64,000 bases of DNA from Escherichia phage phiWec179, in the sequence record LC739533.1. One strand, given 5' to 3'. A program made the position numbers and the translations under genes. The notes beneath the pieces were generated by a model, which was given only the letters and a program-made list of their open reading frames with translations, was not told the origin of the DNA and did not search any database. Shown in pieces: positions 1-12,653 of this stretch; position 1 is the first letter of the stretch; each line of letters opens with the position of its first letter.

Positions 1-35
1 GATTTAGCCATGATGTTAATCTCTTTTTCAGTGAG

Positions 36-94
36 GCGGGAACTATTCCCGCGCCCTATGTAATACAGTTTACTCTTTTTATTCGTGCTGTCAA
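36..94 (-). promoter_or_regulatory. Early promoter (TTGACA-N16-TAAACT) with conserved 5' leader hairpin, copy 1
   Basis: Minus strand: -35 TTGACA (89-94), 16-nt spacer, -10 TAAACT (67-72), then GTATTACATAGGGCG and perfect hairpin GCGGGAA/TTCCCGC (36-52). ATG of the next leftward gene is at 9-11; that gene runs off the window. Confidence 0.6.
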
Positions 95-100
95 TGCTTT

Positions 101-454
101 TTATAAATCTTTTTTACGTTTTACATCGCTTGCATGACTGTATACAGCGATCCCATTATCACGACAAAAACGGGTAAGGTATGATCCGCGTGAAAACTCT
201 TTCCCTTCCAGGTCAACAACCTTGCTAAATTCTTCCAGGGCAACGGTATCAAAATGATCACCATAACCATATTGAAACGGCACGTTAACAACTTCAATCA
301 ATTTACCGCCGATCTCAACGTCCACGCTTAAAGAAAAATATGTGTTACCGTAGGACTGTTGAAACCAGCGACGGGCGCTAATGTGAACGGCTTCAATCTC
401 ACCAATTTTAAATTGAGTGTTACCCAGGATCGCAACGTTGATATTTTTAGCCAT
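101..454 (-). CDS. Hypothetical protein (117 aa)
   Basis: Intact ORF in the leftward early cluster; no motif recognised. Confidence 0.6.
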   Translation of the reverse strand: MAKNINVAILGNTQFKIGEIEAVHISARRWFQQSYGNTYFSLSVDVEIGGKLIEVVNVPFQYGYGDHFDTVALEEFSKVVDLEGKEFSRGSYLTRFCRDNGIAVYSHASDVKRKKDL

Positions 455-550
455 GATTTTTTCTCTCTTTTTGGTTAGTGGGAAGTGTTCCCGATAAAAG
501 TTATTATGCTTATACTATCGTTTTTTGTCAATAGTATAAGACTAAAACTT

Positions 551-730
551 TTAACGATAATCATCGTAGGCTTTATTAACCTGGCGAATATAACATTCGA
601 AAGCGAGATCAATAGAATCATATTCCCGCACATAATCCCCGTAAGAAACTACATACACACCTTTTTGATCCTCAAACGTCATGATGATAGAATCCAGGCC
701 GATGATTTCAGTTTTAGCGATGATAGTCAT
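551..730 (-). CDS. Small hypothetical protein (59 aa)
   Basis: ORF MTIIAKTEIIGLD...; just downstream of promoter copy 2; not in the ORF track (<60 aa). Confidence 0.45.
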   Translation of the reverse strand: MTIIAKTEIIGLDSIIMTFEDQKGVYVVSYGDYVREYDSIDLAFECYIRQVNKAYDDYR

Positions 731-751
731 AATAATAACCTTTTTATTGTT

Positions 752-808
752 GGCGGCACCATTGCCGCCCTACGTGATAAACTATACCAGAATTTTAAAC
801 AGTGTCAA
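752..808 (-). promoter_or_regulatory. Early promoter (TTGACA-N16-TATAGT) with conserved 5' leader hairpin, copy 2
   Basis: Minus strand: -35 (803-808), -10 (781-786), then TTATCACGTAGGGCGG and perfect 7-bp hairpin GGCGGCA-AUGG-UGCCGCC (752-769). Confidence 0.6.
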
Positions 809-818
809 ACGTTTTTTC

Positions 819-1064
819 TTAGTTTGCGAAATATGGCGCGGCGGCTGATGCCGTTAATCTCCAAGTGATTTGGCTATCGATCAAGTATTCTTCATTCTTG
901 ATCCGCACGGTATCAATCGAGAAGTTACTGAAAGGCTTGCTCTTGATTTTACGAACAACCGTTACACGACGGTTATTTTTCATCTCTTTTAACTGAATCC
1001 AGGCGTAACCTTTTTCATTGACAAATATTTCATTGTGATTGGTGATAGATGATAAGTGTTTCAT
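819..1064 (-). CDS. Hypothetical protein (81 aa)
   Basis: ORF directly downstream of promoter copy 3. Confidence 0.55.
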   Translation of the reverse strand: MKHLSSITNHNEIFVNEKGYAWIQLKEMKNNRRVTVVRKIKSKPFSNFSIDTVRIKNEEYLIDSQITWRLTASAAAPYFAN

Positions 1065-1087
1065 GATTTTTCTCTCTTCTGTTTTGA

Positions 1088-1147
1088 GCGGTGGACCATT
1101 CCGCCGCCCTATGTGTTACATCTTACTACTTTTTTAAACATTGTCAA
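1088..1147 (-). promoter_or_regulatory. Early promoter (TTGACA-N16-TAAGAT) with conserved 5' leader hairpin, copy 3
   Basis: Minus strand: -35 (1142-1147), -10 (1120-1125), then GTAACACATAGGGCGGCGG and hairpin (1088-1107, one mismatch). Confidence 0.6.
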
Positions 1148-1155
1148 GGATATTT

Positions 1156-1437
1156 TTAACTATATGATCCACATCGTTCGCAGTAGTGATCATCGTCGTC
1201 ATCTGCTACCTGGCTGATAAAATGATCTACCTTTGCTTTCAAATTATTATAATTGCTTTCTACTTCCTGTAGTCGTCGTTGGTAGTATTCCAGGGCTTGC
1301 ACATAGGCCATTTGTTCGGTTTTAGCTTGCATAGCTAAATTCATGCCACGCGTTTCATCGTATAACCAATAACCATCATTACATTCACTAATAGATAGTG
1401 TAGGGCTTAGTTTTTCGTGACGGATAACCTTGCTCAT
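1156..1437 (-). CDS. Hypothetical protein (93 aa)
   Basis: Intact ORF; acidic DDDDD stretch followed by CxxC near the C-terminus. Confidence 0.55.
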   Translation of the reverse strand: MSKVIRHEKLSPTLSISECNDGYWLYDETRGMNLAMQAKTEQMAYVQALEYYQRRLQEVESNYNNLKAKVDHFISQVADDDDDHYCERCGSYS

Positions 1438-1447
1438 AGTGTGCCCC

Positions 1448-1558
1448 TTACTTCAAAATGATTGTTGTGATAACTGCTACGGTGATCCAGAATGGAACAA
1501 CTAAGATAATAGCGTTAATCGTTCCAACTGTCAAACTATTTTCTTTCTTGATCATCAT
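1448..1558 (-). CDS. Putative small hydrophobic peptide (36 aa)
   Basis: MMIKKENSLTVGTINAIILVVPFWITVAVITTIILK; AAGGA RBS. The longer track ORF 1448..1681 would run through the promoter hairpin. Confidence 0.35.
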   Translation of the reverse strand: MMIKKENSLTVGTINAIILVVPFWITVAVITTIILK

Positions 1559-1565
1559 GTTTTCC

Positions 1566-1649
1566 TTACAGTGTCCAAAGAATGATTTCAAGTGCAGCAC
1601 GGAAACCAGGAATAAAATTGATTGCAAAAAACAGGGAAGTAGTAAACAT
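1566..1649 (-). CDS. Putative tiny hydrophobic peptide (27 aa)
   Basis: MFTTSLFFAINFIPGFRAALEIILWTL; ATG about 20 nt downstream of the copy 4 hairpin. Confidence 0.25.
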   Translation of the reverse strand: MFTTSLFFAINFIPGFRAALEIILWTL

Positions 1650-1671
1650 TTTTCTATCCTTTCAGTTGTGA

Positions 1672-1727
1672 GCGGCACCATTGCCGCCTGATGAGTTAAC
1701 TATAAGGGATCACGTTTTACCTGTCAA
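1672..1727 (-). promoter_or_regulatory. Early promoter (TTGACA-N17-TATAGT) with conserved 5' leader hairpin, copy 4
   Basis: Minus strand: -35 (1722-1727), -10 (1699-1704), then TAACTCATCAGGCGG and hairpin GCGGCAAUGGUGCCGC (1672-1687). Confidence 0.55.
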
Positions 1728-2281
1728 CCTAAATCATCAAAATAAAGATAATTTTTTTCGGCTTCTTTCTTCTCTTCCTGTGATGCCTCAAAGACTGGGA
1801 GAAAGTGATCAAAGGCGACGCACTCAACCGCTTGATCGTCTTCCTCTTCCTGGTCTTCCTCCTGGGCTATGGCTGCAATTTTGGCTAATTTCCTTTCAGC
1901 CTGGATCAGCTTACCATCTAAAACGCTTTTAGCGGTGCTGTACGCCGTCCAAGTGATGCGCTTACTTTCCAGCGCGGCATCAAGCGCCGCTATCTTGCTG
2001 GGGTATTCATCCAGGACACGAAAAGCCGGATCTACCTTGTACAGCGGATTATCTTTCGCGCCGTCGCTATCATCTGCGGCGCTTGCAATGTCAGCGTTAC
2101 CATTCGCCAGCCAACCAGGGCGATCGCTGCGTGTTTTGGTATTCCCATGACTACGCGCCGATCTGTTGCCTACTTGCTCGCCACTATAGCCAGGAGCATG
2201 ATCGATCATGTCGTCCGGTATAATGCGCGGATCATTAACGTCATGTTTTACCCAGGACTGGATCACATATTCGCGCCCCAT
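1724..2281 (-). CDS. Hypothetical protein (185 aa)
   Basis: Intact ORF with acidic C-terminal region (EEDQEEEDD); no motif recognised. Confidence 0.6.
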   Translation of the reverse strand: MGREYVIQSWVKHDVNDPRIIPDDMIDHAPGYSGEQVGNRSARSHGNTKTRSDRPGWLANGNADIASAADDSDGAKDNPLYKVDPAFRVLDEYPSKIAALDAALESKRITWTAYSTAKSVLDGKLIQAERKLAKIAAIAQEEDQEEEDDQAVECVAFDHFLPVFEASQEEKKEAEKNYLYFDDLG

Positions 2282-2541
2282 TATACACCCCTTTTAACAA
2301 TCATTTCACACACAAGAAATAAGCTGGCGGAATCACGGCAAGGATAGAAAGATGTACGATAATCTCTCACCCCTGCTTTTATGATCTCCGTGGTTTTACC
2401 TGATAGCACATTGTAAATAGTGTAACTTGTCGGACTGTTTTTATATACCTTGCCAGGGTAGATCATAACATAACGAGCAAGGTTATAAAATTCCTCGTTA
2501 CGAAAGGCTATGATCTTCCCGCATACCTTAAGAAAGTGCAC
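2281..2541 (-). CDS. Hypothetical protein (86 aa), GTG start
   Basis: GTG at 2539-2541 preceded by AAGGGGG RBS; stop overlaps the start of the downstream gene. Confidence 0.45.
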   Translation of the reverse strand: MHFLKVCGKIIAFRNEEFYNLARYVMIYPGKVYKNSPTSYTIYNVLSGKTTEIIKAGVRDYRTSFYPCRDSASLFLVCEMIVKRGV

Positions 2542-2551
2542 GTTAGCCCCC

Positions 2552-2824
2552 TTACAGCAAAAAGTTTACTTGTCTTGCTGTTAATGTAGTATCAACCATT
2601 TTCGGGCTTTTATAATTGACAAAACGCGCGGTTTTTTCAATAGCGAAGCCGAGATAATCTTGTTTGTTGAAATTACATTCTTTCTTAAATGTTTCCCGTG
2701 CAATGGCGATCGCTGCGTCCAGGGATAAACGCCCGTCAATATTGATATTTGCGAAAGATCCGCCACCGCTCATAGGTTTACCAGTGGTGCCCGTTACGAT
2801 CATTGTTGCGCTATATGATGCCAT
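2552..2824 (-). CDS. Hypothetical protein (90 aa)
   Basis: Start taken at the internal Met (MASYSATMIV...) downstream of the copy 5 hairpin; the track start at 2860 lies inside the hairpin. Confidence 0.55.
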   Translation of the reverse strand: MASYSATMIVTGTTGKPMSGGGSFANINIDGRLSLDAAIAIARETFKKECNFNKQDYLGFAIEKTARFVNYKSPKMVDTTLTARQVNFLL

Positions 2825-2846
2825 GATGATAATCTCTCTTAGTTGT

Positions 2847-2908
2847 GAGCGGTGGACCATTCCGCCGCTCTACGTGATACATCTTATCAGGTTGTTGCCT
2901 GTTGTCAA
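2847..2908 (-). promoter_or_regulatory. Early promoter (TTGACA-N16-TAAGAT) with conserved 5' leader hairpin, copy 5
   Basis: Minus strand: -35 (2903-2908), -10 (2881-2886), then GTATCACGTAGAGCGGCGG and hairpin 2847-2870. Confidence 0.6.
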
Positions 2909-2914
2909 TACTTT

Positions 2915-3112
2915 TTATTCAAGCCCTACGATATGTAAGACACGGCGATTAGCAATAGCGTGCTGGTCTTCTGTTATAACGCCCATTTCTACCAGTGAAT
3001 CAAGAAAGGAAAGCACCGTGATATATTCGTCATCGGGTACACTCATTTCATTAGTACCGTTTACCACTACGTTGATTTGTCCTGCTTTCGCTACAATGTG
3101 CAATGTTGCCAT
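2915..3112 (-). CDS. Hypothetical protein (65 aa)
   Basis: Intact ORF with GGAG RBS; first gene of the leftward small-gene cluster. Confidence 0.5.
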   Translation of the reverse strand: MATLHIVAKAGQINVVVNGTNEMSVPDDEYITVLSFLDSLVEMGVITEDQHAIANRRVLHIVGLE

Positions 3113-3309
3113 GATCTTAACTCCAGGTGATGAATGATGTTTTTTGTTGGTTGACGGTGGATTATGGAGATCCTCACCTTTGCCCGTCCTGCATTGCGCC
3201 CTCCTGTTGTTTATTGTCGTTGTGCCTCGCCCCCCTCGACAAGATTAATACTACGCTACCAGGTGCGGAACGTCAACGACTTTTTCAATCTTTTTTATTT
3301 TCTTTTTGC

Positions 3310-3908: not shown

Positions 3909-4020
3909 TGCAAATGAGAAAAATTCTCATTTGCAAATAAGACTCATTCGCATTTAATAATTGAATGAGAATCATTCTCATTCTCATTCGTATTTCGATT
4001 TTAAGTGAGAATAATTCTCA
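3909..4020. repeat. Three palindromic operator-like sites with core TGAGAA-N1-3-TTCTCA
   Basis: Palindromes at 3909-3935 (12-bp arms), 3963-3983 (10-bp arms) and 4006-4020 (7-bp arms). Confidence 0.7.
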
Positions 4021-4034
4021 TTTCGGTAATTTTC

Positions 4035-4219
4035 ACGTAAACTTTAGAATTTGCTTTTCAACTTTCACTTTTGTAAAAGCAAAAAAACTTTAAATACCTG
4101 GTGCGCGCGACTTTTTAAAAAATTTTTCTCGGTTTTTTGCTTTGAAATCTGGCCCACCAATTTGAGATAGTGTACGTAAACTTTAGAATTTGGTTTTGGA
4201 TTCTCACTTTTGTAAACTC
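4035..4219. repeat. Imperfect ~46-bp direct repeat pair plus TTGAGATA triplet
   Basis: ACGTAAACTTTAGAATTT identical at 4035-4052 and 4174-4191, with similar extensions ending ACTTTTGTAAA. TTGAGATA occurs at 4162, 4248 and 4271. AT-rich context. Confidence 0.7.
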
Positions 4220-4375
4220 GTAAAAAGTTTAAATAATTGTAGGGATTTTGAGATAGTTTGCTTGTAAGGTTTGAGATAATCCTTCCCGAAGATGTTACGC
4301 AGCCTACAGCCTACCTGAATGCTCGTCTAACGAGATTAACTCTAAAAGATGAGTGTTGGTGTAGCTAAAGAGAAA

Positions 4376-4402
4376 AGGCTCTCTACGGTGTTGTAGGAGC
4401 CT
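4376..4402. terminator. Intrinsic terminator hairpin, probably bidirectional
   Basis: Stem AGGCUC/GAGCCU with extended CUAC/GUAG pairing; T-rich tail on the minus strand (UUUUCUCUUU) after the leftward operon, weaker T-tract on plus. Confidence 0.55.
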
Positions 4403-4473
4403 TATTTCTGTGGCACAAAGTTGACGTATTCTTTTTAAAAACGAATTTTTTCAAAATATCACGAATATCGCCT

Positions 4474-5001
4474 TTATGGTATTTTGGCTGGGAACAGGAT
4501 TTTAATCAGATTGTTGTGGTATTGTCCTAAAAGATTCTGCCCTTTCCAGTTGGCAGGATTAAGCACCCCTGGTTCGTACATACCCATTCCAATTCCGTAA
4601 ACCTTATCATAAGGACTCGCCTCAACGAACGTTTTGAATTGGTACAGTCGCAAGTCAGAATAAAGATCAGGGTTCTGTGTATACTTCAAGCATAAGCCTC
4701 GCATTACGATACGCTCTCGGTACTCTTCCCACATGTCATTATTAAAACCAGACACCGCTCGACCCATGCGCTTGTAGTATGCCTGTCCCTTCTCGTCGTC
4801 ACGCTTCATTGAGTGATCAAGGATAGCTGCTGCGATTACCTGATCCTTGAACAGCAAAGCCTTACGCCACATCATGTATTGCTCTACACAACAGAAAGTT
4901 TCATTGTACCCTGGTTCCGTCTCTGTGAATGGTGCAATGTACCAATTGCTAAACACATCTTTATGTGAAAAGAAGAATACATATTCATTAGTTATTCGCA
5001 T
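4474..5001 (-). CDS. NADAR (YbiA-like, DUF1768) domain protein; candidate ADP-ribosyl-guanine hydrolase
   Basis: Recalled YbiA/NADAR family motifs: FFFSHKDVFSNWY, CCVEQYMMWRKALLF, RMGR, YTQNPDL...FVEASPYD..YGIGMG...NLLGQ. Confidence 0.8.
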   Translation of the reverse strand: MRITNEYVFFFSHKDVFSNWYIAPFTETEPGYNETFCCVEQYMMWRKALLFKDQVIAAAILDHSMKRDDEKGQAYYKRMGRAVSGFNNDMWEEYRERIVMRGLCLKYTQNPDLYSDLRLYQFKTFVEASPYDKVYGIGMGMYEPGVLNPANWKGQNLLGQYHNNLIKILFPAKIP

Positions 5002-5176
5002 TTTTCATGCCTCTTAAGACTTCAGCTTGCCCGTCTTGAAAAGCTTTCATCAGAACTATCTTAAGATTGACTTCCAAGCGTTCTTCATCCTCTTTATAAC
5101 AATCCAACACTGCCTTAAGTTCATCATAGTGGTTCAGAATAGGTTTAAAGATTTCATGATCTGCTAAACGTGCCAT
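4988..5176 (-). CDS. Hypothetical protein (62 aa)
   Basis: Start at MARLADHEIF with AAGGAG RBS; the track's upstream Met at 5212 has no RBS. Confidence 0.5.
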   Translation of the reverse strand: MARLADHEIFKPILNHYDELKAVLDCYKEDEERLEVNLKIVLMKAFQDGQAEVLRGMKNANN

Positions 5177-5189
5177 AGTTTCTCCTTTG

Positions 5190-5555
5190 TTAGTCCATCC
5201 ACCAGTAGCCATAAACTGCGTCTGCGTCGATGAGTTTGTGTTTGTTGTTCCGCATGTAGTCTAAGATAAGTAGACGTTTATTGTATCTGGAGAGATTATG
5301 ACCCTCTTTTCCGCCATAGTCAAAATATTTTGCAAGACTTTTACACTCAAACAAAATCAGTTCGGGAGTTTCTTCACATTGGTCTGTCTGGTACACTTGA
5401 CGGATGATCATGTATACGTCATCGTCTTCCGCTAAGTGCTCTACTGGTCCACACCCAGCAGGAATAAATTCATAGTCCCATCGAATCAGATGTTTCTCTA
5501 CTGCTTCAAAGAAATCCATTTTTTCGCTACGCATGATCTGAACATCAATTAACAT
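5190..5555 (-). CDS. Hypothetical protein (121 aa)
   Basis: ORF with AGGAGG RBS; overlaps the stop of the upstream gene. Confidence 0.55.
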   Translation of the reverse strand: MLIDVQIMRSEKMDFFEAVEKHLIRWDYEFIPAGCGPVEHLAEDDDVYMIIRQVYQTDQCEETPELILFECKSLAKYFDYGGKEGHNLSRYNKRLLILDYMRNNKHKLIDADAVYGYWWMD

Positions 5556-6561
5556 AATTTTCCTCCTGTCTCATTATTCCACCTGCTTGGTTGATAGCAC
5601 TTAAGACAACAGCCAAATCCTCACGCAGGAAGGTTTCACTATGACCGTCTTTCATGTGCAACGCTTCCACACAGCCGATAGACGGTAGGATCTGATCAGT
5701 CTTAGATTTTAGCTTACTCTCTAACGCCCTGCAAGCCTGGTAGGACGGCAGATCAAACAATGCTACACGTTGCATAAAGTAGTTATTATTTGCATTCTGA
5801 ATCTTCAAACGTATATCACTATCCTTTGCAATCCCCAGCTTGAAAGCTCCCGTATCTTCTCCATACTCATCAAGGATAACGTTGATGTAAAATTCTTGCT
5901 GTGATCTGCCTTTACATTCAGAACAACCATTCCCACTTAGATACTTATTAGGTGTTATCGTTTGTTCTCCGTGCTCACTACATAAATATTTAAACTTAGA
6001 CATGGTTCCCACCTTACCAACGAACCCTATAAACTGGTCCCCTCGTTCCTGGCAAGCTTCAGTCATACGGAAAATCCATTGCGCAGGAGTGTAACGATGG
6101 TTTTTAGAACAACGGCAAGCAAGCAGCCCATCTCTAAGACTGCTCCTCGTTACTTCAAACCTACCGTTACACACGCCAGCCTTTACATATTCGTCATGAG
6201 AACATACGGAACACTTAACTATCCAATAAGCCGCCCATCCTTTACTATCTAATCTATCACTACGATAATACTCACGCGGAACGTTATCAGGACACGCTTT
6301 GTTAAAGGTTGTGATATGGATTGAATCATCAATTAAACATGTTTGCCTTATTGCTTCCACCCTACAACCTTTACAACCACTTCCTATTTTAGCATTATCT
6401 ATAGAAGTTGTTCTCCATTCCCCATGTATAGAACATTCACAGGTTAGTTTAGTGCGTGCCCCCTTCCATTCACCATGCCACCCCGTAATGGTCCACGGTT
6501 TATCCTGGTAAGCTTGTTCTATTTCTTCCTGATATTCCTCCCAACTTTTAGCCCTCATCAT
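5545..6561 (-). CDS. T5orf172-type (GIY-YIG superfamily) domain protein with N-terminal Cys-rich repeats; homing-endonuclease-like
   Basis: C-terminus FKLGIAKDSDIRLKIQN...ACRALESKL...KDGHSETF fits the T5orf172 pattern; CxxC / C..HG repeats in the N-terminal part. Paralog of 10129..11082. Confidence 0.6.
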   Translation of the reverse strand: MMRAKSWEEYQEEIEQAYQDKPWTITGWHGEWKGARTKLTCECSIHGEWRTTSIDNAKIGSGCKGCRVEAIRQTCLIDDSIHITTFNKACPDNVPREYYRSDRLDSKGWAAYWIVKCSVCSHDEYVKAGVCNGRFEVTRSSLRDGLLACRCSKNHRYTPAQWIFRMTEACQERGDQFIGFVGKVGTMSKFKYLCSEHGEQTITPNKYLSGNGCSECKGRSQQEFYINVILDEYGEDTGAFKLGIAKDSDIRLKIQNANNNYFMQRVALFDLPSYQACRALESKLKSKTDQILPSIGCVEALHMKDGHSETFLREDLAVVLSAINQAGGIMRQEENYVN

Positions 6562-6575
6562 CCCCCCTACAACAA

Positions 6576-6593
6576 ATGCCCCTTGCGGGGCAT
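6576..6593 (-). terminator. GC hairpin (AUGCCCC-UUGC-GGGGCAU), terminator-like
   Basis: Between the AAA+ ATPase stop and the T5orf172 start; weak U-tract on the minus strand. Same GCCCCTTGCGGGGC core as the late terminator at 49347-49360. Confidence 0.35.
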
Positions 6594-6598
6594 CTTTA

Positions 6599-7738
6599 TT
6601 AGAACACGCTACTTAAGGTTGCAGATCGTGTAGTGGTTGGTTCCAGAACCACACGGAACGTATCCCCAGGTTTATCGCTCACTACTACAATCTTACCACC
6701 TTCGATCAGGTCACACTTCAAACCTTCGGCAGTAGCTTTCAGGTCGATGCGTGGATCGCCATCATCATCCAGGATAACGTAGCTGCTATCTTCGAGAGGC
6801 TCCAGTTCTTCGTCTTTCACGGCTTCCAGGTAGATGTTCAGTTCACATGCACCAGACAAGAACTTGGTAGGAGTGAACTCATGCCAGTTGTTGACCCAGT
6901 TAGGCTTGATAGCTTTACCGTTGACAACAATAGAGCTAATCGTCCAGCGTGCATCGTTACCCAGAGAGATACCCATCATCTCCAGACAGGTCTTGAACGT
7001 CATTTTCGGATAGAAGTTTAACTCTTCTACGATCCCTTGAATAACATCGAAAGACAGTTCAGTGCTAACATCCCACAAACGTTGGAAGCTTTCAACATGT
7101 TTGCGATTCTTCAGATTCTTGTCCAGGTAGTCCAGCATAGTTTCAATAGACAGTTTGTCGTAGTTGAAGCTATAGAAGATACGGCTCGGACGGTTGACGA
7201 AGTATTCCGAGATGTATCCGCTGTTCTTTGTCAGCATGAACAGTTTGTTACCGCTACCTGTGCCATCCAGCAGAGTCAGCAGTGCTTCCTGATCTTCCTT
7301 CTTGGAATACACTTTGTCGAACTCATCGAACAGTACTACTGCGCGTTCAGAGATCTTACTCATGAACTCCAGGAAATTGGCATCAGAATATGGCTGCGTT
7401 ACCAGAATAGTTGGGATTCCCAGGTCTTCCGCTTCCAACAGAGTGTTACTGATCAGTTTTGCCAGCATTGTCTTGCCACTGCCTTTTGTACCCGACAACA
7501 GGACACCTGTGTTCTTACCTTCTTTACTACGACGAGCGAAGGTACGGATAACGTGGGCTGCACGTTCTTTGGTTTCCCCGTACAGGCGATCAGGAATCGT
7601 GAACTTATCAGCGCGACTAAGAGAATAGTTACCATGTGGATCACAATTGACAGTCCAAACGCCAGCGGGGAGTTTATCAACCTCTACACCAAAATCTTTA
7701 TTAACAATTGCAACATCCCCATAAACTGTGTATTTCAT
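6599..7738 (-). CDS. AAA+ family ATPase
   Basis: Walker A GTKGSGKT, Walker B VVLFDEFD, downstream arginine-containing segment NRPSRI. Confidence 0.75.
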   Translation of the reverse strand: MKYTVYGDVAIVNKDFGVEVDKLPAGVWTVNCDPHGNYSLSRADKFTIPDRLYGETKERAAHVIRTFARRSKEGKNTGVLLSGTKGSGKTMLAKLISNTLLEAEDLGIPTILVTQPYSDANFLEFMSKISERAVVLFDEFDKVYSKKEDQEALLTLLDGTGSGNKLFMLTKNSGYISEYFVNRPSRIFYSFNYDKLSIETMLDYLDKNLKNRKHVESFQRLWDVSTELSFDVIQGIVEELNFYPKMTFKTCLEMMGISLGNDARWTISSIVVNGKAIKPNWVNNWHEFTPTKFLSGACELNIYLEAVKDEELEPLEDSSYVILDDDGDPRIDLKATAEGLKCDLIEGGKIVVVSDKPGDTFRVVLEPTTTRSATLSSVF

Positions 7739-7763
7739 TTACTTTCTCCTCTTCTGTTGGAAT

Positions 7764-7798
7764 AGACGTATTATCTCTTGTCTAATACGTCTTGTCAA
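7764..7798 (-). promoter_or_regulatory. Promoter (TTGACA-N17-GATAAT) embedded in a 10-bp inverted repeat
   Basis: Minus strand: -35 (7793-7798), -10 (7770-7775). Perfect inverted repeat AGACGTATTA (7764-7773) / TAATACGTCT (7783-7792) spans the -10 box. Confidence 0.5.
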
Positions 7799-7806
7799 TA
7801 CTTGTT

Positions 7807-8166
7807 TTAGATCCCTTCGCCTTTAGTGATGATAGCTTCCATCACCACAGCTTTCTTCTTACGTTGAACATCTTGACGGATCAGGAGGCTACCACCTTGA
7901 TCATCCTTATACTGCTTCATGATGATGAAGTTGTTGCCACACACAGCGCCGATAGCCACGTATGGGCGATTAGAATTATCCACATCCGCAGATGGGGTTA
8001 CATCCGTGCAAGTAAAGAACTTGCCATCAGGATCAGTATAAGCAAAGTGGCCTTTAGCAGTTACTGCAACTTCTCCGGTGCTTGTGGACTGTGCAGCCAC
8101 AAACGGTGCAGCAGATGCTACGAAACTTGCAGACAGCAGGGCTACAGCTAAAATAATCTTTTTCAT
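7807..8166 (-). CDS. Secreted protein with N-terminal signal peptide (119 aa)
   Basis: MKKIILAVALLSASFVASA then mature domain; AGAGGAG RBS. Confidence 0.65.
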   Translation of the reverse strand: MKKIILAVALLSASFVASAAPFVAAQSTSTGEVAVTAKGHFAYTDPDGKFFTCTDVTPSADVDNSNRPYVAIGAVCGNNFIIMKQYKDDQGGSLLIRQDVQRKKKAVVMEAIITKGEGI

Positions 8167-8178
8167 GGTGATCTCCTC

Positions 8179-8340
8179 TTATTCCAACAACATACACAAT
8201 GCAGCTACAACCAAGAACAGAGTAGCCACGCTTAAAGCGATAAACATTCCTAATTGAGAATGAAATTCGCCTATGATAGGTGCAGACAACGCACTTAGCA
8301 AACAACCTGTCAAACTTGCTTTGATAATAAGATCTAACAT
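8179..8340 (-). CDS. Small hydrophobic membrane protein (53 aa)
   Basis: MLDLIIKASLTGCLLSALSAPIIGEFHSQLGMFIALSVATLFLVVAALCMLLE; strong AGGAGG RBS; not in the ORF track. Confidence 0.45.
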   Translation of the reverse strand: MLDLIIKASLTGCLLSALSAPIIGEFHSQLGMFIALSVATLFLVVAALCMLLE

Positions 8341-8348
8341 ATTACCTC

Positions 8349-8600
8349 CTACAATTCCACAATAGTTTTATCTAAGTGGTGTGCCTCAACTTGAGATAAG
8401 GTTAGCACTTCAACCAAACCTCTGTCAATACCTAATTTGATCACTTGCAAATAATCACCGAAAAGATCAGAGATTTCAATCTGGTGTTCAGTAACCACCA
8501 CGACCTCGTTACCCTTGGTATACTCTCTCCAGATTCGTCCACACTTATAAATGAAATCTTTCTGGTCTTCACTGATCATCTTAGGCTTAACGCTTAACAT
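8349..8600 (-). CDS. Hypothetical protein (83 aa)
   Basis: Intact ORF with GGGAG RBS; ATG overlaps the upstream stop. Confidence 0.55.
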   Translation of the reverse strand: MLSVKPKMISEDQKDFIYKCGRIWREYTKGNEVVVVTEHQIEISDLFGDYLQVIKLGIDRGLVEVLTLSQVEAHHLDKTIVEL

Positions 8601-8938
8601 TACATACTCCCGTAGTCTGGTTCAATATGGTGTTTACGACAAATAGCATCCCAACGTTCACTACCGAAACCCCGTCCGTGTAGTGCATCGTATGCGAAAT
8701 GTTCTGCCAACCACAATACTACACCATCTGGTTCAGTGTCAAGCGGAATTCGAAATTCTCGATCATAACGCATACGGAGAACAAACTCATTACCGTCTTC
8801 CAGGAGATGCATGTGACTTTTCGCTCGTGATGCCAAGTCAAAGAAAGGTGCCTCGTCTTTCCAAACCTGGCGCTCAACCTCAATACCGTGATCAACTACC
8901 AGGGTAGCAATCACATCTTTCATTTCTTTACTAAACAT
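8600..8938 (-). CDS. Hypothetical protein (112 aa)
   Basis: Start at MFSKEMKDV with AGGAGGG RBS; the track start at 8968 would overlap the upstream gene by 22 nt. Confidence 0.55.
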   Translation of the reverse strand: MFSKEMKDVIATLVVDHGIEVERQVWKDEAPFFDLASRAKSHMHLLEDGNEFVLRMRYDREFRIPLDTEPDGVVLWLAEHFAYDALHGRGFGSERWDAICRKHHIEPDYGSM

Positions 8939-8946
8939 ATTCCCTC

Positions 8947-9192
8947 CTAATAATGTTTTAAAGTCCACTCAATACCTGACGGGTAACTGCCTCGACAAAT
9001 CTTACCATCGGAATGCCAGTTAATGCTATCAGGGAAAGTATGATTTAGTGTTTTTTCATGAGGAAGCCATTCTGTAGGCTTCTCTCCACCATTGATCCAT
9101 ACAAAACCTTCGTCTTCCAGTAAACCTAAAGCAAACTCCATCTCTTCTGCATCGTGAACCGTTACTTTCTGACCTTTCTGTAATTTAATCAT
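8947..9192 (-). CDS. Hypothetical protein (81 aa)
   Basis: Intact ORF in the leftward operon. Confidence 0.55.
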   Translation of the reverse strand: MIKLQKGQKVTVHDAEEMEFALGLLEDEGFVWINGGEKPTEWLPHEKTLNHTFPDSINWHSDGKICRGSYPSGIEWTLKHY

Positions 9193-9201
9193 ATTACCCC
9201 C

Positions 9202-9375
9202 TTAACCAATTAGTTGGACTGCCTTGCAGATGTAAATCCAAACAGGACTAAGCATAAGTGCTACAATACTGGGGTAAATCCCTTTTGGCTCTATCTCAAT
9301 TATTGATAAGATTAAGGTGACAGCACTGATAAACATATAAGCTCCCAAGAAAGCCAGCGTCAAGAATTCAGACAT
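9202..9375 (-). CDS. Small membrane protein (57 aa)
   Basis: Start at MSEFLTLAFLGAYMFISAVTLIL with GGAG RBS; two hydrophobic segments. Confidence 0.5.
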   Translation of the reverse strand: MSEFLTLAFLGAYMFISAVTLILSIIEIEPKGIYPSIVALMLSPVWIYICKAVQLIG

Positions 9376-9377
9376 AA

Positions 9378-9710
9378 TTAGCTCCACAAGTTATGAAAAT
9401 ATTCAGCAAACAGGCAACGACCTTCGATTTTATCCGTTTTGGTCATAACGGATTCAGGTTTAAAACCTTCAATCATTTGATCAATAATGGATAACCACTC
9501 CACTGTAGCTTCCCGCTCCTGCTCTTCTGTTAGTTTACGGTAATCTGACACATATTTAGCCCAAATCTTAGATGGGATAAGGATATCCCCTCGTTCCACA
9601 ATACGTGCCTTGAACGCGTACAGTCCAGCACAGATAATCGCGGAGAACGTATCATCCAGGTCTTGCAGATCTTCTACGCCAAATTGTAATTCATCATGGA
9701 TAATTTTCAT
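9378..9710 (-). CDS. Hypothetical protein (110 aa)
   Basis: Intact ORF; 4-nt overlap with the upstream gene. Confidence 0.6.
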   Translation of the reverse strand: MKIIHDELQFGVEDLQDLDDTFSAIICAGLYAFKARIVERGDILIPSKIWAKYVSDYRKLTEEQEREATVEWLSIIDQMIEGFKPESVMTKTDKIEGRCLFAEYFHNLWS

Positions 9711-9994
9711 TTTGTTTCTCCCCGCTCTGCGTCTAATTTCAATAAGAAGGCTGCATACTCTTCCGAACCTTTGTGTAAGAACATACGATAAGAACTCACC
9801 AGTTTCTTCGTTGTTGTATAACGCTCCATTCCGCCGACAACCCCTGTACCGAGAGTGTAGAGAACAACACCTTCAACCCCAACATGGGTTACGACTTCAA
9901 CCATGTCCGTGTTATCCCAGTGATATTTAGGGGATACAATAAGATCGCCAACTGCTAATTTGATGTTTGCCGCTTCGTCTTGTGAATAGTACAT
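9707..9994 (-). CDS. Hypothetical protein (95 aa)
   Basis: First gene of the leftward operon, downstream of the divergent promoter. Confidence 0.6.
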   Translation of the reverse strand: MYYSQDEAANIKLAVGDLIVSPKYHWDNTDMVEVVTHVGVEGVVLYTLGTGVVGGMERYTTTKKLVSSYRMFLHKGSEEYAAFLLKLDAERGETK

Positions 9995-10039
9995 TTTGTT
10001 CTCCTCTCACATTAGGACACGTTTTGTGTCGATGGGTGT

Positions 10040-10104
10040 AGATTACGTGAGCACAAAGGGGTTGTCAACTACTTATTGACAAAAATTTCTAAACGTTGTA
10101 AATT
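10040..10104. promoter_or_regulatory. Divergent back-to-back sigma70-like promoters
   Basis: Plus: TTGACA (10076-10081)-N17-TAAATT (10099-10104). Minus: TTGACA (10063-10068)-N17-TAATCT (10040-10045). The -35 boxes form the palindrome TTGTCAA-N7-TTGACAA (10062-10082). Confidence 0.6.
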
Positions 10105-10128
10105 AAAAACATCTACAAAGGAGGAAAC

Positions 10129-11082
10129 ATGAAATACGAAGATTTTAAACAAATAGTTAAAGACGATGTGGTATTTGAGAACTTACAGGAAGGTTGTGAA
10201 GTCTTAGGTTGGACAGAAAGAGATAGAAACTTTGCAAAAATATACGTAATACGTTGTAGTGTTTGTGCCAAAGACCCCGAAATGTATGGAGATGGTCTTT
10301 TTACAGCTACAAAAGGGCGTTTAGTGAAAGGTCAGAAATGTTGCGCGTGCGCTGTATCCTTTAAATACAGTCAAAACCAACACCTAATTCTGCTAAACAG
10401 GCATTTAAGTGTCGCAGGGTACAGCATAGTTTCTATTGGTGCTTGGGAGTGTTCTAAGACGAGAATAGAGTTTAGTTGTGAGAATGGACACACGAAGAAC
10501 AGAACCCTGGCTCAAGCAAAGGTAGTAGAACCTTGTAAACAGTGTCTTGAAGAAGGCTGTACAAAACACAAACAAGATGAGGCAGAGGCAAAAATTATGA
10601 AGATAATAGAAGATAAATGTTTACCTTATGTATTTGTAGGGTGGGATACTTCTTACAAGAATGTAACTTCAAAATTCAACCTCATCTGTTCGGATCACGG
10701 TTTAAAAACAATAAGATACGCTTGTTTCCTAAATGGTCATTTTTGTAACGAGTGTTCTGGTAGAAATTGCCTAAGTCTTTATTTATTAGGAGTTTATGAT
10801 AGAGACTTGTTGGTAGGTTTAAAATTTGGCATCTCTCAGAGTCCAGTAAGAAGGGTTCAACAGTTAAATAAAAGGAACTTATTTAAATGTAAAATACTAC
10901 AGATTTGGACTTTTACATCACATGATCAAGCTGTACGGATGGAAACATTATTAAAGAACACATTGCGAACTGGAATATTTACTAAAAGAGAGATGAAAGA
11001 TGGTCATACAGAAACCACAGAAGTTACTAATTTAGAAACCATAATGGACCTTATGACCTCATCTCATGGATTGGTTAGTTAA
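10129..11082 (+). CDS. T5orf172-type (GIY-YIG superfamily) domain protein with N-terminal Cys-rich repeats; homing-endonuclease-like
   Basis: C-terminus LKFGISQSPVRRVQQLN...AVRMETLLKN...KDGHTET; CxxC / C..HG repeats. Paralog of 5545..6561. Confidence 0.6.
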   Translation: MKYEDFKQIVKDDVVFENLQEGCEVLGWTERDRNFAKIYVIRCSVCAKDPEMYGDGLFTATKGRLVKGQKCCACAVSFKYSQNQHLILLNRHLSVAGYSIVSIGAWECSKTRIEFSCENGHTKNRTLAQAKVVEPCKQCLEEGCTKHKQDEAEAKIMKIIEDKCLPYVFVGWDTSYKNVTSKFNLICSDHGLKTIRYACFLNGHFCNECSGRNCLSLYLLGVYDRDLLVGLKFGISQSPVRRVQQLNKRNLFKCKILQIWTFTSHDQAVRMETLLKNTLRTGIFTKREMKDGHTETTEVTNLETIMDLMTSSHGLVS

Positions 11083-11377
11083 CAAAAACCTTAACATTTC
11101 CGATGTTCTTGCTGACTTCTTGTGAGAACATTGAAAGTACCTTGTCAAGCAGTTTTACTAATTCATTTGTAATTTGTTCCTCTGAACGAGAAGAAGTAAG
11201 TACCTTACTCTCACCAACGATGTGCATCACCTTGATAGGAGCATTCAGGATAACATTGTGCTTTTCATCTTCTTCGAAAGATGCTAACCACTTCTCATTA
11301 TTCCCGTGCAAAGCCACGATAACACCAAAACCGTTAATAGTTTGTGAAATGTTCTTAGTTGCTAATGTAATGTTCAT
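11075..11377 (-). CDS. Hypothetical protein (100 aa), antisense-oriented within the rightward block
   Basis: Own promoter and AGAGAGG RBS; 3' end overlaps the 3' end of 10129..11082 by 8 nt. Confidence 0.55.
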   Translation of the reverse strand: MNITLATKNISQTINGFGVIVALHGNNEKWLASFEEDEKHNVILNAPIKVMHIVGESKVLTSSRSEEQITNELVKLLDKVLSMFSQEVSKNIGNVKVFVN

Positions 11378-11405
11378 TGTTCACCTCTCTTAATAATGTA
11401 GGGCT

Positions 11406-11433
11406 ATTGTACACTAAAAATATTTCAGGTCAA
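11406..11433 (-). promoter_or_regulatory. Promoter (TTGACC-N16-TACAAT) for 11075..11377
   Basis: Minus strand: -35 (11428-11433), -10 (11406-11411). Confidence 0.5.
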
Positions 11434-11494
11434 GTGTTGACAAGCTTTTTGGTTCTGTTATGATTAGCTCATACTAAATGAGAGGAGAAAACAA

Positions 11495-11932
11495 ATGCAA
11501 AACATCAAACTGACTTGGACCGAAGCTAAAGAAGCAATGAAGGAAGGTAGACGTGTTAAACACGAGTATTTCTGTGGTGGGGAATGGTTTGAGATGCAAT
11601 ATGGTGTTATTCTGGACGAACATGGTTATAATATGACTGATTGGTATCGTGACGAAGCTTGGCAGGATGATGGTTGGTCTGTGGTTGAGAAAGAAGGTAA
11701 TGAGGAAGAAGGACTGTTGTCTAATGTAGAGCGCGAAATGCGGGAAACAAAGGTGCCCGAACTGGACTACCATCACCTGGAACTTCTTGTGGCAGCATCT
11801 TTCGCTACTGGAGATACAATGTGGCAAACTCCGGTGTCCCGTGTCGATAACCAAAATAAACCGTCTGCCCGTAATCACAAGCTTTACAAAGGTAAAGGTC
11901 ATAACAAACTGAAGAAAGGAAAGAAGAAATGA
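11495..11932 (+). CDS. DUF2829-like protein (the family that includes anti-Thoeris Tad2) with Lys-rich C-terminal extension
   Basis: N-terminus LTWTEAKEAMKEGRRVKHEYF and later WQDDGWSVV resemble the recalled DUF2829 pattern; family call is from memory. Confidence 0.4.
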   Translation: MQNIKLTWTEAKEAMKEGRRVKHEYFCGGEWFEMQYGVILDEHGYNMTDWYRDEAWQDDGWSVVEKEGNEEEGLLSNVEREMRETKVPELDYHHLELLVAASFATGDTMWQTPVSRVDNQNKPSARNHKLYKGKGHNKLKKGKKK

Positions 11933-12075
11933 TCTACAAAAACAAGTTCACTGGTTGTCTACGTAAGTTTGTCGATAAAAAAGGTTATGTTTCGCTTGAC
12001 AACGGGACTACATGGGTGCAGAATGGGACTTCAGAACAATTGATCAAGGCTCTGCCTTACTACGAGGAGGTTTAA
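11929..12075 (+). CDS. Small hypothetical protein (48 aa)
   Basis: ATGA-coupled to the upstream gene; ends immediately before the next ATG; not in the ORF track. Confidence 0.4.
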   Translation: MIYKNKFTGCLRKFVDKKGYVSLDNGTTWVQNGTSEQLIKALPYYEEV

Positions 12076-12399
12076 ATGTCCAACAATCTGTTTAGCGTGT
12101 CAATCGCACCGCGTGTTAATATTCGCTGTCAGTTTGTTACCTTGCCAGGCGTGACACACATTACTTTAGAGTATGATCCTCGTTCACGAGAGAACCCAAT
12201 TACAGGCAAGATTGATTCAGCCTACGGCGACTTCCTAATGGATCACCAAGCGATCTTATGTTGTGTGCAACGCTTACAGGCAGGGTCTTTATACATCTTT
12301 AAGAAGTCTGTGTTCCAAGAGATTGCTCAAGCAGTTGAAAGCGGTATGGAGACTCTTAACGCTATGATTGAAGCAGCCAACAAGAAGGAGGTTTTATGA
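12076..12399 (+). CDS. Hypothetical protein (107 aa)
   Basis: Tightly coupled operon member with GAGGAGG RBS. Confidence 0.6.
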   Translation: MSNNLFSVSIAPRVNIRCQFVTLPGVTHITLEYDPRSRENPITGKIDSAYGDFLMDHQAILCCVQRLQAGSLYIFKKSVFQEIAQAVESGMETLNAMIEAANKKEVL

Positions 12400-12653
12400 C
12401 ACTCTATCACGTAACCACTGAAGGCGATACCGAAGGTCGTACTACAAAAGACTTAGGGTATGTTGAAGCAGATTCGCCTGAACATGCAATCAAGTATCTG
12501 CACTCTATAGGGAAGTATGCAGGGTATAAATATGACATTCAAGAAGTTGAAGTCAACCCTGTACAAGTGGCAACACCTATGGTAGAGTTGCAGTATCTTA
12601 AAGCCAAGGTTACACCTGGGCCTTTGGGCGGTTATAAGGGAGAGGTAAAATGA
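12396..12653 (+). CDS. Hypothetical protein (85 aa)
   Basis: 4-nt overlap coupling; AAGGAGG RBS. Confidence 0.6.
   Translation: MTLYHVTTEGDTEGRTTKDLGYVEADSPEHAIKYLHSIGKYAGYKYDIQEVEVNPVQVATPMVELQYLKAKVTPGPLGGYKGEVK

Follow-up and report, generated by a model that had tools for sequence, protein, structure and literature searches.

Results

Two paralogous genes and their products

The sequence analysed in the present study was a 64,000-nt stretch of Escherichia phage phiWec179 (LC739533.1), hereafter referred to as the window. Its subject is a pair of genes, A and B, which encode proteins with a cysteine-rich N-terminal region and a nuclease-like C-terminal domain. The window was 100% identical to Escherichia phage phiWec181 (LC739534.1, Stephanstirmvirinae), with window position 4000 corresponding to position 52118 of that record. 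Both genes are labelled 'hypothetical protein' in LC739534.1, and RefSeq already names the A-site gene 'endonuclease' in related phages. A first-pass annotation made from the sequence alone had described A and B as two divergent paralogs of the T5orf172 type. Both open reading frames (ORFs) were found exactly where it had placed them:

5545-6561, minus strand: gene A, 338 aa, three zinc modules followed by a C-terminal GIY-YIG-like (T5orf172-like) nuclease domain.
10129-11082, plus strand: gene B, 317 aa, three zinc modules followed by a C-terminal GIY-YIG-like (T5orf172-like) nuclease domain.

The GenBank start of A is the second ATG; residue numbers of A given in second-ATG numbering are raised by 1 for the 338-aa ORF that starts at 6561.

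A BLASTP comparison revealed 28% identity between A and B over the C-terminal 144 aa (E 2e-14), with the Cys-rich modules matching more weakly. When A and B were searched with phmmer against all six-frame ORFs of the window, the reciprocal partner was the sole accepted match (E 1e-17 and 8e-20). A weak phmmer match at 52466-53182 was considered as a third copy within the window and was rejected, as it lies antisense inside a 1016-aa gene. These results confirmed the kinship of A and B. The count of two did not hold, and the phage carries three such genes, the third outside the window.

The composition of the N-terminal regions agreed with the earlier description. Within the first 220 aa lie 15 of the 17 cysteines of A and 17 of the 18 cysteines of B. 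The CxxC and CxC repeats were present in both proteins (three CxxC and two CxC in A; four CxxC and one CxC in B), and the C..HG element was found twice in A and once in B. The KDGH(S/T)ET motif was likewise present (KDGHSET at 304-310 in A; KDGHTET at 290-296 in B); it does not end the proteins, as had been stated, and lies about 25-30 residues upstream of the C-terminus.

Zinc modules of the N-terminal region

The Pfam CapR homology domain (PF21817) matched A in three stretches (E 1.1e-26, 93.2 bits) and B in two (E 1.5e-20, 73.6 bits), and both scores exceeded the cut-off of 24.2 bits. The Cys/His ligand patterns indicated three zinc modules in each protein, with an order that differs between the two:

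6352-6474, minus strand: zinc module 1 of A, about aa 30-70, C41-x-C43-x2-H46 ... C63-x2-C66.
6106-6249, minus strand: zinc module 2 of A, about aa 105-152, C117-x2-C120 ... C149-x-C151, of the CapR type (CxxC...CxC).
5908-6009, minus strand: zinc module 3 of A, about aa 185-218, C194-x2-H197 ... C213-x2-C216.
10189-10353, plus strand: zinc module 1 of B, aa 21-75, C43-x2-C46 ... C72-x-C74, of the CapR type and the best CapR stretch of B.
10441-10548, plus strand: zinc module 2 of B, about aa 105-140, C117-x3-H121 ... C136-x2-C139, with the C117, C136 and C139 columns invariant.
10666-10758, plus strand: zinc module 3 of B, about aa 180-210, C187-x2-H190 ... C206-x2-C209, these four residues nearly invariant.

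The CxxC...CxC pattern is the defining CapR motif (PMC10448857), and module 2 of A coincides with the best CapR stretch of that protein (aa 106-152). Module 1 of A gave a weak DUF723 match at aa 31-66, and its C42, C62 and C65 columns (second-ATG numbering) are invariant in the family alignment. Module 3 of A aligned to residues 181-211 of B, with C193, H196, C212 and C215 (second-ATG numbering) nearly invariant. Both A and B matched PHROG 681, labelled 'endonuclease', at about E 1e-57. The label HNH endonuclease, carried by PHROG 559, was rejected: the PHROG 559 match covers the zinc-finger region alone (aa 1-234 of A and aa 64-211 of B), and neither protein gave a Pfam HNH match.

A divergent GIY-YIG-type domain at the C-terminus

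The remainder of each protein forms a nuclease-like domain of about 110 aa:

5572-5907, minus strand: nuclease-like domain of A, about aa 219-330.
10759-11064, plus strand: nuclease-like domain of B, about aa 211-312.

The first-pass annotation had assigned this domain to T5orf172. Against the Pfam model of that name (PF10544), B reached 15.1 bits (E 0.034), below the cut-off of 20, and against the related MUG113 model (PF13455) it reached 19.4 bits, with a cut-off of 22.3. A gave no Pfam match to PF10544 or PF13455 at E <= 1. By the threshold of the model itself, A and B lie outside PF10544. An NCBIfam scan and a PADLOC search gave no match for A or B, and a Foldseek search with the whole models against the PDB gave none either. 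Because the PF10544 match was weak or absent, the assignment was based instead on the fold, the family-wide profile and the conserved residues.

The AF2 (AlphaFold2) models of A and B were confident, and the C-terminal domain has the alpha/beta fold of GIY-YIG domains. When a profile of the domain was compared with PDB sequences, the top match was the GIY-YIG protein 1zg2_A (UPF0213), at a marginal E of 0.042. This alignment placed the Tyr, Gly, Arg and Glu of 1zg2_A in register with the domain (Y224, R250 and E280 of A; Y218, R242 and E272 of B). The same profile, compared with 1.84 billion representatives, retrieved 1715 proteins at E <= 1e-3 and 678 at E <= 1e-10, and the domain was C-terminal in all 1715 cluster representatives. 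Among the top 120 matches, CapR was detected in 108, T5orf172 in 26 at E <= 0.01 (best 6.4e-5) and MUG113 in 19 (best 5e-6). Judged from the bit scores at other E-values, the best T5orf172 match among these homologues probably lies above the Pfam cut-off of 20 bits.

The residues invariant across the family are a Tyr, K-x-G-I, an Arg, a Glu, D-G and E-T, and all of them are present in both proteins. A keeps Y224, K240, G242, I243, R250, E280, D304, G305, E308 and T309 (second-ATG numbering), and B keeps Y218, K232, G234, I235, R242, E272, D291, G292, E295 and T296. The second motif is K-[LF]-G-I, not Y-I-G, and each domain contains two invariant Glu residues, either of which may be the catalytic one. 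These results indicated that the C-terminal domain is a nuclease domain of the GIY-YIG superfamily, in a divergent branch beside Pfam T5orf172 and MUG113. The earlier assignment thus stands at the level of a T5orf172-like member of the superfamily and falls at that of a PF10544 match.

Gene A is inserted beside an AAA-ATPase gene

Gene A lies next to an AAA-ATPase gene (6599-7738, minus strand) and is cleanly missing in the sister phage phiWec188, in which the flanks are 95.6-98% identical and the AAA-ATPase gene and the next gene are 45 bp apart. Two features mark the upstream side of the insertion:

6576-6593, no strand assigned: hairpin ATGCCCCTTGCGGGGCAT, a GC-rich palindrome just 3' of the ATPase stop, from the terminator-like scan and the site alignment.
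6599-6625, minus strand: 3' tract of the ATPase gene, its last 27 nt, with 6 synonymous differences from the A-less phiWec188.

The hairpin forms the upstream edge of the insertion and is kept in occupied and empty sites alike, so that A sits between it and the ribosome-binding site (RBS) of the downstream gene. The final codons of A (..QEENYVN*) come from the RBS and start region of that downstream gene, and alleles with as little as 45% identity end in the same way. The shared endings across distant alleles indicated that the junction is old and common. No promoter-like site belonging to A was found, and the gene lies directly behind the terminator-like hairpin.

The empty junction was spanned by 2 of 70 matching phage records, phiWec188 and phiWec190; in the other listed records of the 70, the match was interrupted at the junction. 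The A-site alleles in those relatives have 33-67% aa identity, the same ATPase neighbour and three to five CapR stretches, and the alleles in many phages are intact, at 330-486 aa. An Odn-like gene of the RepA_N type was considered at the A site of phage Muut and was rejected: the gene there consists of three CapR stretches and a T5orf172-like domain.

Comparison with metagenomic contig L014 revealed that the flanks are 95-100% identical to the window and that identity is 60-90% exactly over 5600-6670, which spans A. The synonymous divergence (dS) between the window and this contig was 0.50 for A, 0.13 for the AAA-ATPase gene, 0.06 for the downstream ORF (5190-5555) and 0.05 for the NADAR gene (4474-5001). 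The contrast in dS between A and its neighbours indicated that the A alleles have a history distinct from their surroundings, that is, a cassette-like replacement.

The AAA-ATPase protein is 100% identical between phiWec181 and phiWec188, and its gene has 25 synonymous differences. These differences are clustered, with 6 of the 25 in the last 27 nt beside A (binomial P 5e-6) and 5 in the first 48 nt. A dip in identity at 6599-6625 was seen against another allele-bearing contig as well. From this pattern, the tract is a candidate recognition site or co-conversion tract of A; a recombination breakpoint would give an equal pattern.

Gene B is part of a cassette within the DUF7325 gene

Gene B belongs to a cassette inserted within the 3' end of a gene for a DUF7325 protein. 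The features at this locus are as follows:

About 10039-11120, plus strand: B cassette of about 1.08 kb, comprising a promoter-like site, an RBS, gene B and a replacement DUF7325 3' end.
11075-11377, minus strand: DUF7325 gene (PF24011, E 7.6e-18), the first gene of the leftward unit.
9999-10038, minus strand: displaced old DUF7325 tail (...PIDTKRVLM*), a non-coding remnant left of B, 97.5% identical to phiWec188 (L004:14156-14195).
10076-10104, plus strand: sigma-70-like promoter, TTGACA-17-TAAATT, 25 nt 5' of the B ATG and followed by a strong AAGGAGG RBS.
10062-10082, no strand assigned: perfect palindrome TTGTCAA-N7-TTGACAA, whose right arm is the -35 element of the B promoter-like site.

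The breakpoints were mapped against phiWec188 and gave exact junctions. The cassette supplies the last ~15 codons of the DUF7325 gene (11075-11120), and this new tail overlaps the 3' end and stop codon of B by 8 nt. B is on the strand opposite to the Phage_tudor and DUF7325 genes, both in the window and in four metagenomic contigs (L005-L008), which carry the same cassette at the identical site with a 74%-identical B allele.

Three haplotypes were found at the locus: empty, a 492-nt gene, or B. In phage ESCO13 the site is empty, with the Phage_tudor gene directly next to the DUF7325 gene. In phiWec188 and PsgM04F it is occupied by the unrelated 492-nt gene, flanked by two TTCTCCTCTC repeats, TTCTCCTCTC being a 10-bp RBS sequence. 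This gene (phiWec188 L004:13636-14155, minus strand, corresponding to window ~10008) encodes 163 aa with a weak DUF7337 match. The 492-nt gene may have been lost from the window between the two TTCTCCTCTC repeats or gained in the relatives, as ESCO13 shows that an empty state exists.

The left arm of the palindrome repeats the TTGTCAA of the right junction (11142-11148). At up to one mismatch the pattern occurs twice in the 64-kb window against 0.05 expected, and the copy at 10062-10082 is the sole exact one; the other has one mismatch (47356-47376, plus strand, TTGTCAAGTTATTGTTGATAA). Its arms are conserved in contig L005, and the spacer has diverged. These observations suggested that the palindrome may be an operator, a binding site or a recognition element. 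In L005 an imperfect direct repeat of about 24 bp, derived from the target, lies on either side of the cassette; of this repeat the window retains only TTGTCAA and a few more bases. The B allele of L005 has diverged about as far as its flanks, with 77% nucleotide identity throughout.

The absence of the genes at a precise site in close relatives, named as a check in the first-pass annotation, was thus established for both A and B. This result favours the reading of A and B as homing endonucleases.

Position in the transcription units, third paralog and selection

Two promoter-like sites, the strongest in the region, stand at the head of the leftward and rightward gene blocks:

11406-11464, both strands: divergent sigma-70-like promoter pair, with the minus-strand site at 11433-11406 (10/12) and the plus-strand site at 11437-11464 (11/12, with TG).

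The position of this pair implies that the leftward block starts with the DUF7325 gene and that B lies inside it, not at its edge. A is located mid-block with three co-oriented genes downstream, and B is antisense after the first gene of the unit. The proposal that the two genes bracket the left operon was therefore not borne out. Similarity to phiWec188 peaks in the block between A and B, at 98.0% against 90.8-96.9% around it.

The third paralog is located outside the window, 1.85 kb past its right end:

LC739534.1 113972-114985 (L010:1973-2986), plus strand: third paralog, 337 aa.

Its product is 33% identical to A over the full length (E 1e-62), with three CapR stretches and a T5orf172 score of 18.2 bits. 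The gene lies in the tail-gene region, between genes of 708 nt and 1956 nt on the opposite strand; the counterpart region of PsgM04F carries genes labelled as tail fiber, virion structural and tape measure proteins. The third paralog is precisely absent in phiWec188, where a 159-nt spacer is found instead, and is also missing from PsgM04F.

The ratio of non-synonymous to synonymous divergence (dN/dS) between B and the 74% allele was 0.10, with 0.06 in the nuclease domain and 0.13 in the zinc-finger region; neighbouring phage genes gave 0.03-0.21. For A the ratio was 0.38, with 0.24 in the nuclease domain and 0.47 in the zinc-finger region. These values indicated that A and B are working genes in which the nuclease part matters most. 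A blastn search of A and B against 5,426 complete E. coli genomes gave no DNA match, and exchange with host-resident elements was rejected on this result.

Other features of the region

Several further observations were made in and around the leftward block. An 81-aa ORF at 8947-9192 (minus strand), which gave no Pfam match, is absent in phiWec188 and PsgM04F and stands at the same place in metagenomic contig L015; it is another small presence/absence polymorphism within the block. The last gene of the block (4474-5001, minus strand) has a counterpart in homologous contigs that carries a NADAR domain (PF08719), and in related phages this counterpart is labelled 'COG3236 / GTP cyclohydrolase II'. 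In window 1-3000, stretches of about 30-105 nt match several places in a phiWec188 region of many small ORFs at 78-97% identity, which suggests a repeated element between small ORFs.

The phage deposited as 'Pseudomonas phage PsgM04F' (OR584014.1) is 94.5% identical over the matched 69% of window 4000-12500 (8.5 kb), and its host label, Pseudomonas coronafaciens pv. garcae, is unusual within this coliphage group. Outside the window, LC739534.1 begins with bacterial genes of the dTDP-rhamnose-pathway type (positions 1-3127, L009), namely a partial dTDP-glucose 4,6-dehydratase, glucose-1-phosphate thymidylyltransferase, rfbC and rbfD.

Discussion

Interpretation of A, B and the third paralog

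In the present study, we found that the observation made in the first-pass annotation was confirmed and that its interpretation was partly supported. A, B and the third paralog are probably free-standing homing endonuclease genes whose products combine CapR-type zinc fingers with a T5orf172-like GIY-YIG nuclease. The architecture of the proteins, the fold class and the invariant residues of their C-terminal domain, the presence or absence of the genes at fixed junctions, the replacement of alleles and the purifying selection were all observed here. On this reading A and B would cleave DNA at defined target sites and would home; the likely targets lie at gene ends, for A at the ATPase 3' end and for B at the DUF7325 3' end that contains TTGTCAA.

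The three tandem, treble-clef-like zinc modules would read a long DNA site, and the C-terminal GIY-YIG-type domain would cut close to it. In a co-infecting relative that has no copy of the gene or has another allele, the cut chromosome would be repaired from the endonuclease-bearing genome, so that the relative would acquire the gene together with part of its flanks. By this route A would have entered the 45 bp that separate the ATPase gene from its downstream neighbour, reading out through the RBS of the latter. B would have arrived as a self-contained cassette with its own promoter, landing in the DUF7325 3' end and giving that gene a new C-terminal tail.

Several results weigh against this interpretation. 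CapR/T5orf172 genes have so far been called homing endonucleases mainly from their genomic distribution, and the one T5orf172 nuclease activity cited there as demonstrated is that of another family member (PMC10448857). The sub-threshold score of B with PF10544, the lack of any match for A to that model or to PF13455, and the Foldseek search that returned nothing from the PDB all count on the same side. The direct repeat of about 24 bp around the cassette in L005 is unlike the prediction of simple double-strand-break repair. The similar divergence of allele and flanks in this contig shows vertical co-inheritance there, not recent movement. The A site, furthermore, is occupied in nearly all relatives, and a purely selfish element near fixation is expected to decay, so that a benefit to the host or repeated reinvasion must be assumed for A.

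Alternative explanations

A and B could have a dual function and do more than insert themselves selfishly, a view that we regard as unlikely. B would be an autorepressor in the manner of I-TevI, binding the palindrome over its own promoter as well as the TTGTCAA-containing DUF7325 3' end, and its antisense transcription would adjust the expression of the gene that opens the leftward, presumably early, unit; I-TevI represses its own promoter (PMC10448857) and is a precedent for this idea. The ~24-bp target duplication would then reflect an insertion route other than plain double-strand-break repair. A and B could also be the ends of an island of homing endonuclease genes that carries the ten genes between them (6599-9994, with the AAA ATPase among them) along into co-infecting relatives. 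The 98.0% similarity of the block speaks neither for nor against such an island, since phiWec188 lacks both A and B. A further reading is that A and B are domesticated DNA-binding regulators whose zinc fingers repress phage promoters, with the nuclease activity lost or secondary; a DNA-binding regulator had been put forward as an alternative in the first-pass annotation. In favour of this reading, the founding member of the CapR homology domain, to which the DNA-binding region of A and B belongs, is a repressor. At B the palindrome overlaps the -35 element of the promoter-like site, with arms kept and spacer altered in the 74% allele, and transcription of B runs antisense into the DUF7325 gene that opens the leftward unit; the nearly constant occupation of the A site and the purifying selection on both genes would also fit a regulator. 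Nevertheless, constraint is strongest in the nuclease domain of both proteins, and this domain keeps every family-invariant residue, whereas the CapR of PLE matches only the N-terminal domains of ICP1 proteins. The presence/absence pattern and cassette-like allele replacement at three loci are unexpected for a core regulator, and phiWec188/190 lack all three genes at these sites. Moreover, autorepression is compatible with a homing endonuclease, as I-TevI demonstrates, and hence offers no substitute reading. The regulator explanation was therefore disfavoured, and we consider it improbable.

The near fixation of the A site and the purifying selection on A and B can also be read as signs of a benefit to the carrier phage, in which case the nucleases would serve as weapons against the DNA of competitors, be they co-infecting phages or satellites resident in the host. 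ICP1 offers a precedent for such co-option of a T5orf172 nuclease, as its Odn cuts the PLE origin, and a similar role has been suggested for the related coliphages Inny, Muut and Mt1B1_P17; the faster evolution of the DNA-binding region of A (dN/dS 0.47) is what an arms race predicts. However, Pfam detected no RepA_N or other satellite-derived DNA-binding domain in A and B, only fingers of the CapR/DUF723 type, and neither the 5,426 complete E. coli genomes nor PADLOC provided a match. Cutting the empty site of a relative is, in addition, the first step of homing, so this explanation overlaps with homing itself, and as a separate account we consider it improbable. The expectation that homing endonuclease genes decay once fixed would make A and B inactive relics of past invasions, kept because deletion is slow. 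The near fixation of the A site, a domain that the Pfam T5orf172 model barely recognises, and the position of A behind a terminator-like hairpin with no promoter-like site of its own are in line with decay. The ORFs themselves are intact and of full length, as are the alleles elsewhere (330-486 aa); dN/dS is low overall (0.10 for B and 0.38 for A) and lower still in the nuclease domain (0.06 and 0.24), the family-invariant residues are all kept, and the AF2 models are confident. Inactive relics are accordingly very improbable.

Significance

On the homing-endonuclease reading, A, B and the third paralog are selfish phage genes of a known type, and no new biological principle is involved. For three proteins so far labelled 'hypothetical' in a recently described coliphage group (proposed genus 'Wecvirus'), the analysis provides names and a testable function; the paper on the phiWec phages makes no mention of endonucleases or homing. 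The most useful points are the rewriting of a host-gene 3' end by B and a testable pair of sister species. phiWec181, which carries all three genes, and phiWec188, in which all three sites are empty of them, are culturable on E. coli, and with this pair the homing of the class, its co-conversion tracts and its target sites could readily be measured. The three genes explain most of the indel differences between these two phages in the region. They also mark likely recombination boundaries, which is relevant to nucleotide-identity taxonomy and to engineering.

Comparison with known systems

The relation of A and B to the eukaryotic repair enzymes SLX1 and HIGLE is one of fold and not of function: these enzymes have a RING/PHD finger partner and 12-22% identity. 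Odn differs in its RepA_N domain of satellite origin, to which A and B gave no Pfam match. PLE CapR, a repressor of the ICP1 capsid operon from a Vibrio cholerae phage satellite (PMC8096241), has a homologous zinc-finger DNA-binding domain with the CxxC...CxC motif. It stands alone without a nuclease domain, whereas A and B keep a constrained nuclease-like domain at the C-terminus.

With T4 Seg and I-TevI, GIY-YIG homing endonucleases of the free-standing or intron-encoded kind, A and B share free-standing insertion between genes or at gene ends, presence or absence from phage to phage, and a modular combination of DNA-binding and nuclease parts. In contrast, the nuclease domain is N-terminal in those proteins and C-terminal in A and B, DNA binding relies on NUMOD/helix-turn-helix elements there and on CapR-type zinc fingers here, and the second motif of A and B is K-[LF]-G-I rather than Y-I-G; sequence similarity is negligible. 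A closer relative is AAX12067.1 of phage T5 ('RB49ORF238c-like', 265 aa), encoded beside the pb2 tail gene. This protein is shorter than A and B and has the CapR domain (E 2.4e-24) in two stretches. Its C-terminal domain is the one found in A and B, and the alignment extends to the DG-x-TET motif (hhalign probability 97.7%, E 1.7e-12). It gives no T5orf172 match above threshold either, and so does not connect A and B directly to PF10544, the family that takes its name from T5.

The closest system is the class of putative CapR-domain/T5orf172 homing endonuclease genes of vibriophage ICP1, for example gp165 and gp174 (Barth, Dunham & Seed 2023, PMC10448857), which has also been described for T5-like and Aeromonas phages (PMC10448857). 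The present genes differ from it in their Stephanstirmvirinae coliphage setting, in a divergent nuclease domain below the PF10544 threshold, and in the rewriting of a host-gene 3' end with a displaced remnant by B, which was not found described in PMC10448857. That paper names none of Phapecoctavirus, phAPEC8, ESCO13 and Stephanstirmvirinae; it covers T5orf172 genes of the RepA_N type in Muut, a member of the subfamily, and in Inny and Mt1B1_P17. Similarities to the ICP1 class are extensive. One or more N-terminal zinc-finger modules of the CapR, DUF723 or DUF4379 type precede a C-terminal T5orf172-type nuclease domain; the zinc modules are repeated and reshuffled, with their number varying by allele (3-5 CapR stretches); several copies occur per genome, one of them beside the tape-measure gene; and non-homologous alleles occupy one site. 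Over 90% of its length A is 28% identical to ICP1 genes annotated 'putative homing endonuclease' (E 9e-25); for B, the ICP1 matches are ORF174 and its neighbours (E 3e-7 to 4e-12). The present results thus extend the CapR/T5orf172 class to genes of the CapR type in Stephanstirmvirinae, a pairing of gene type and lineage that lies beyond those covered in the defining paper (PMC10448857).

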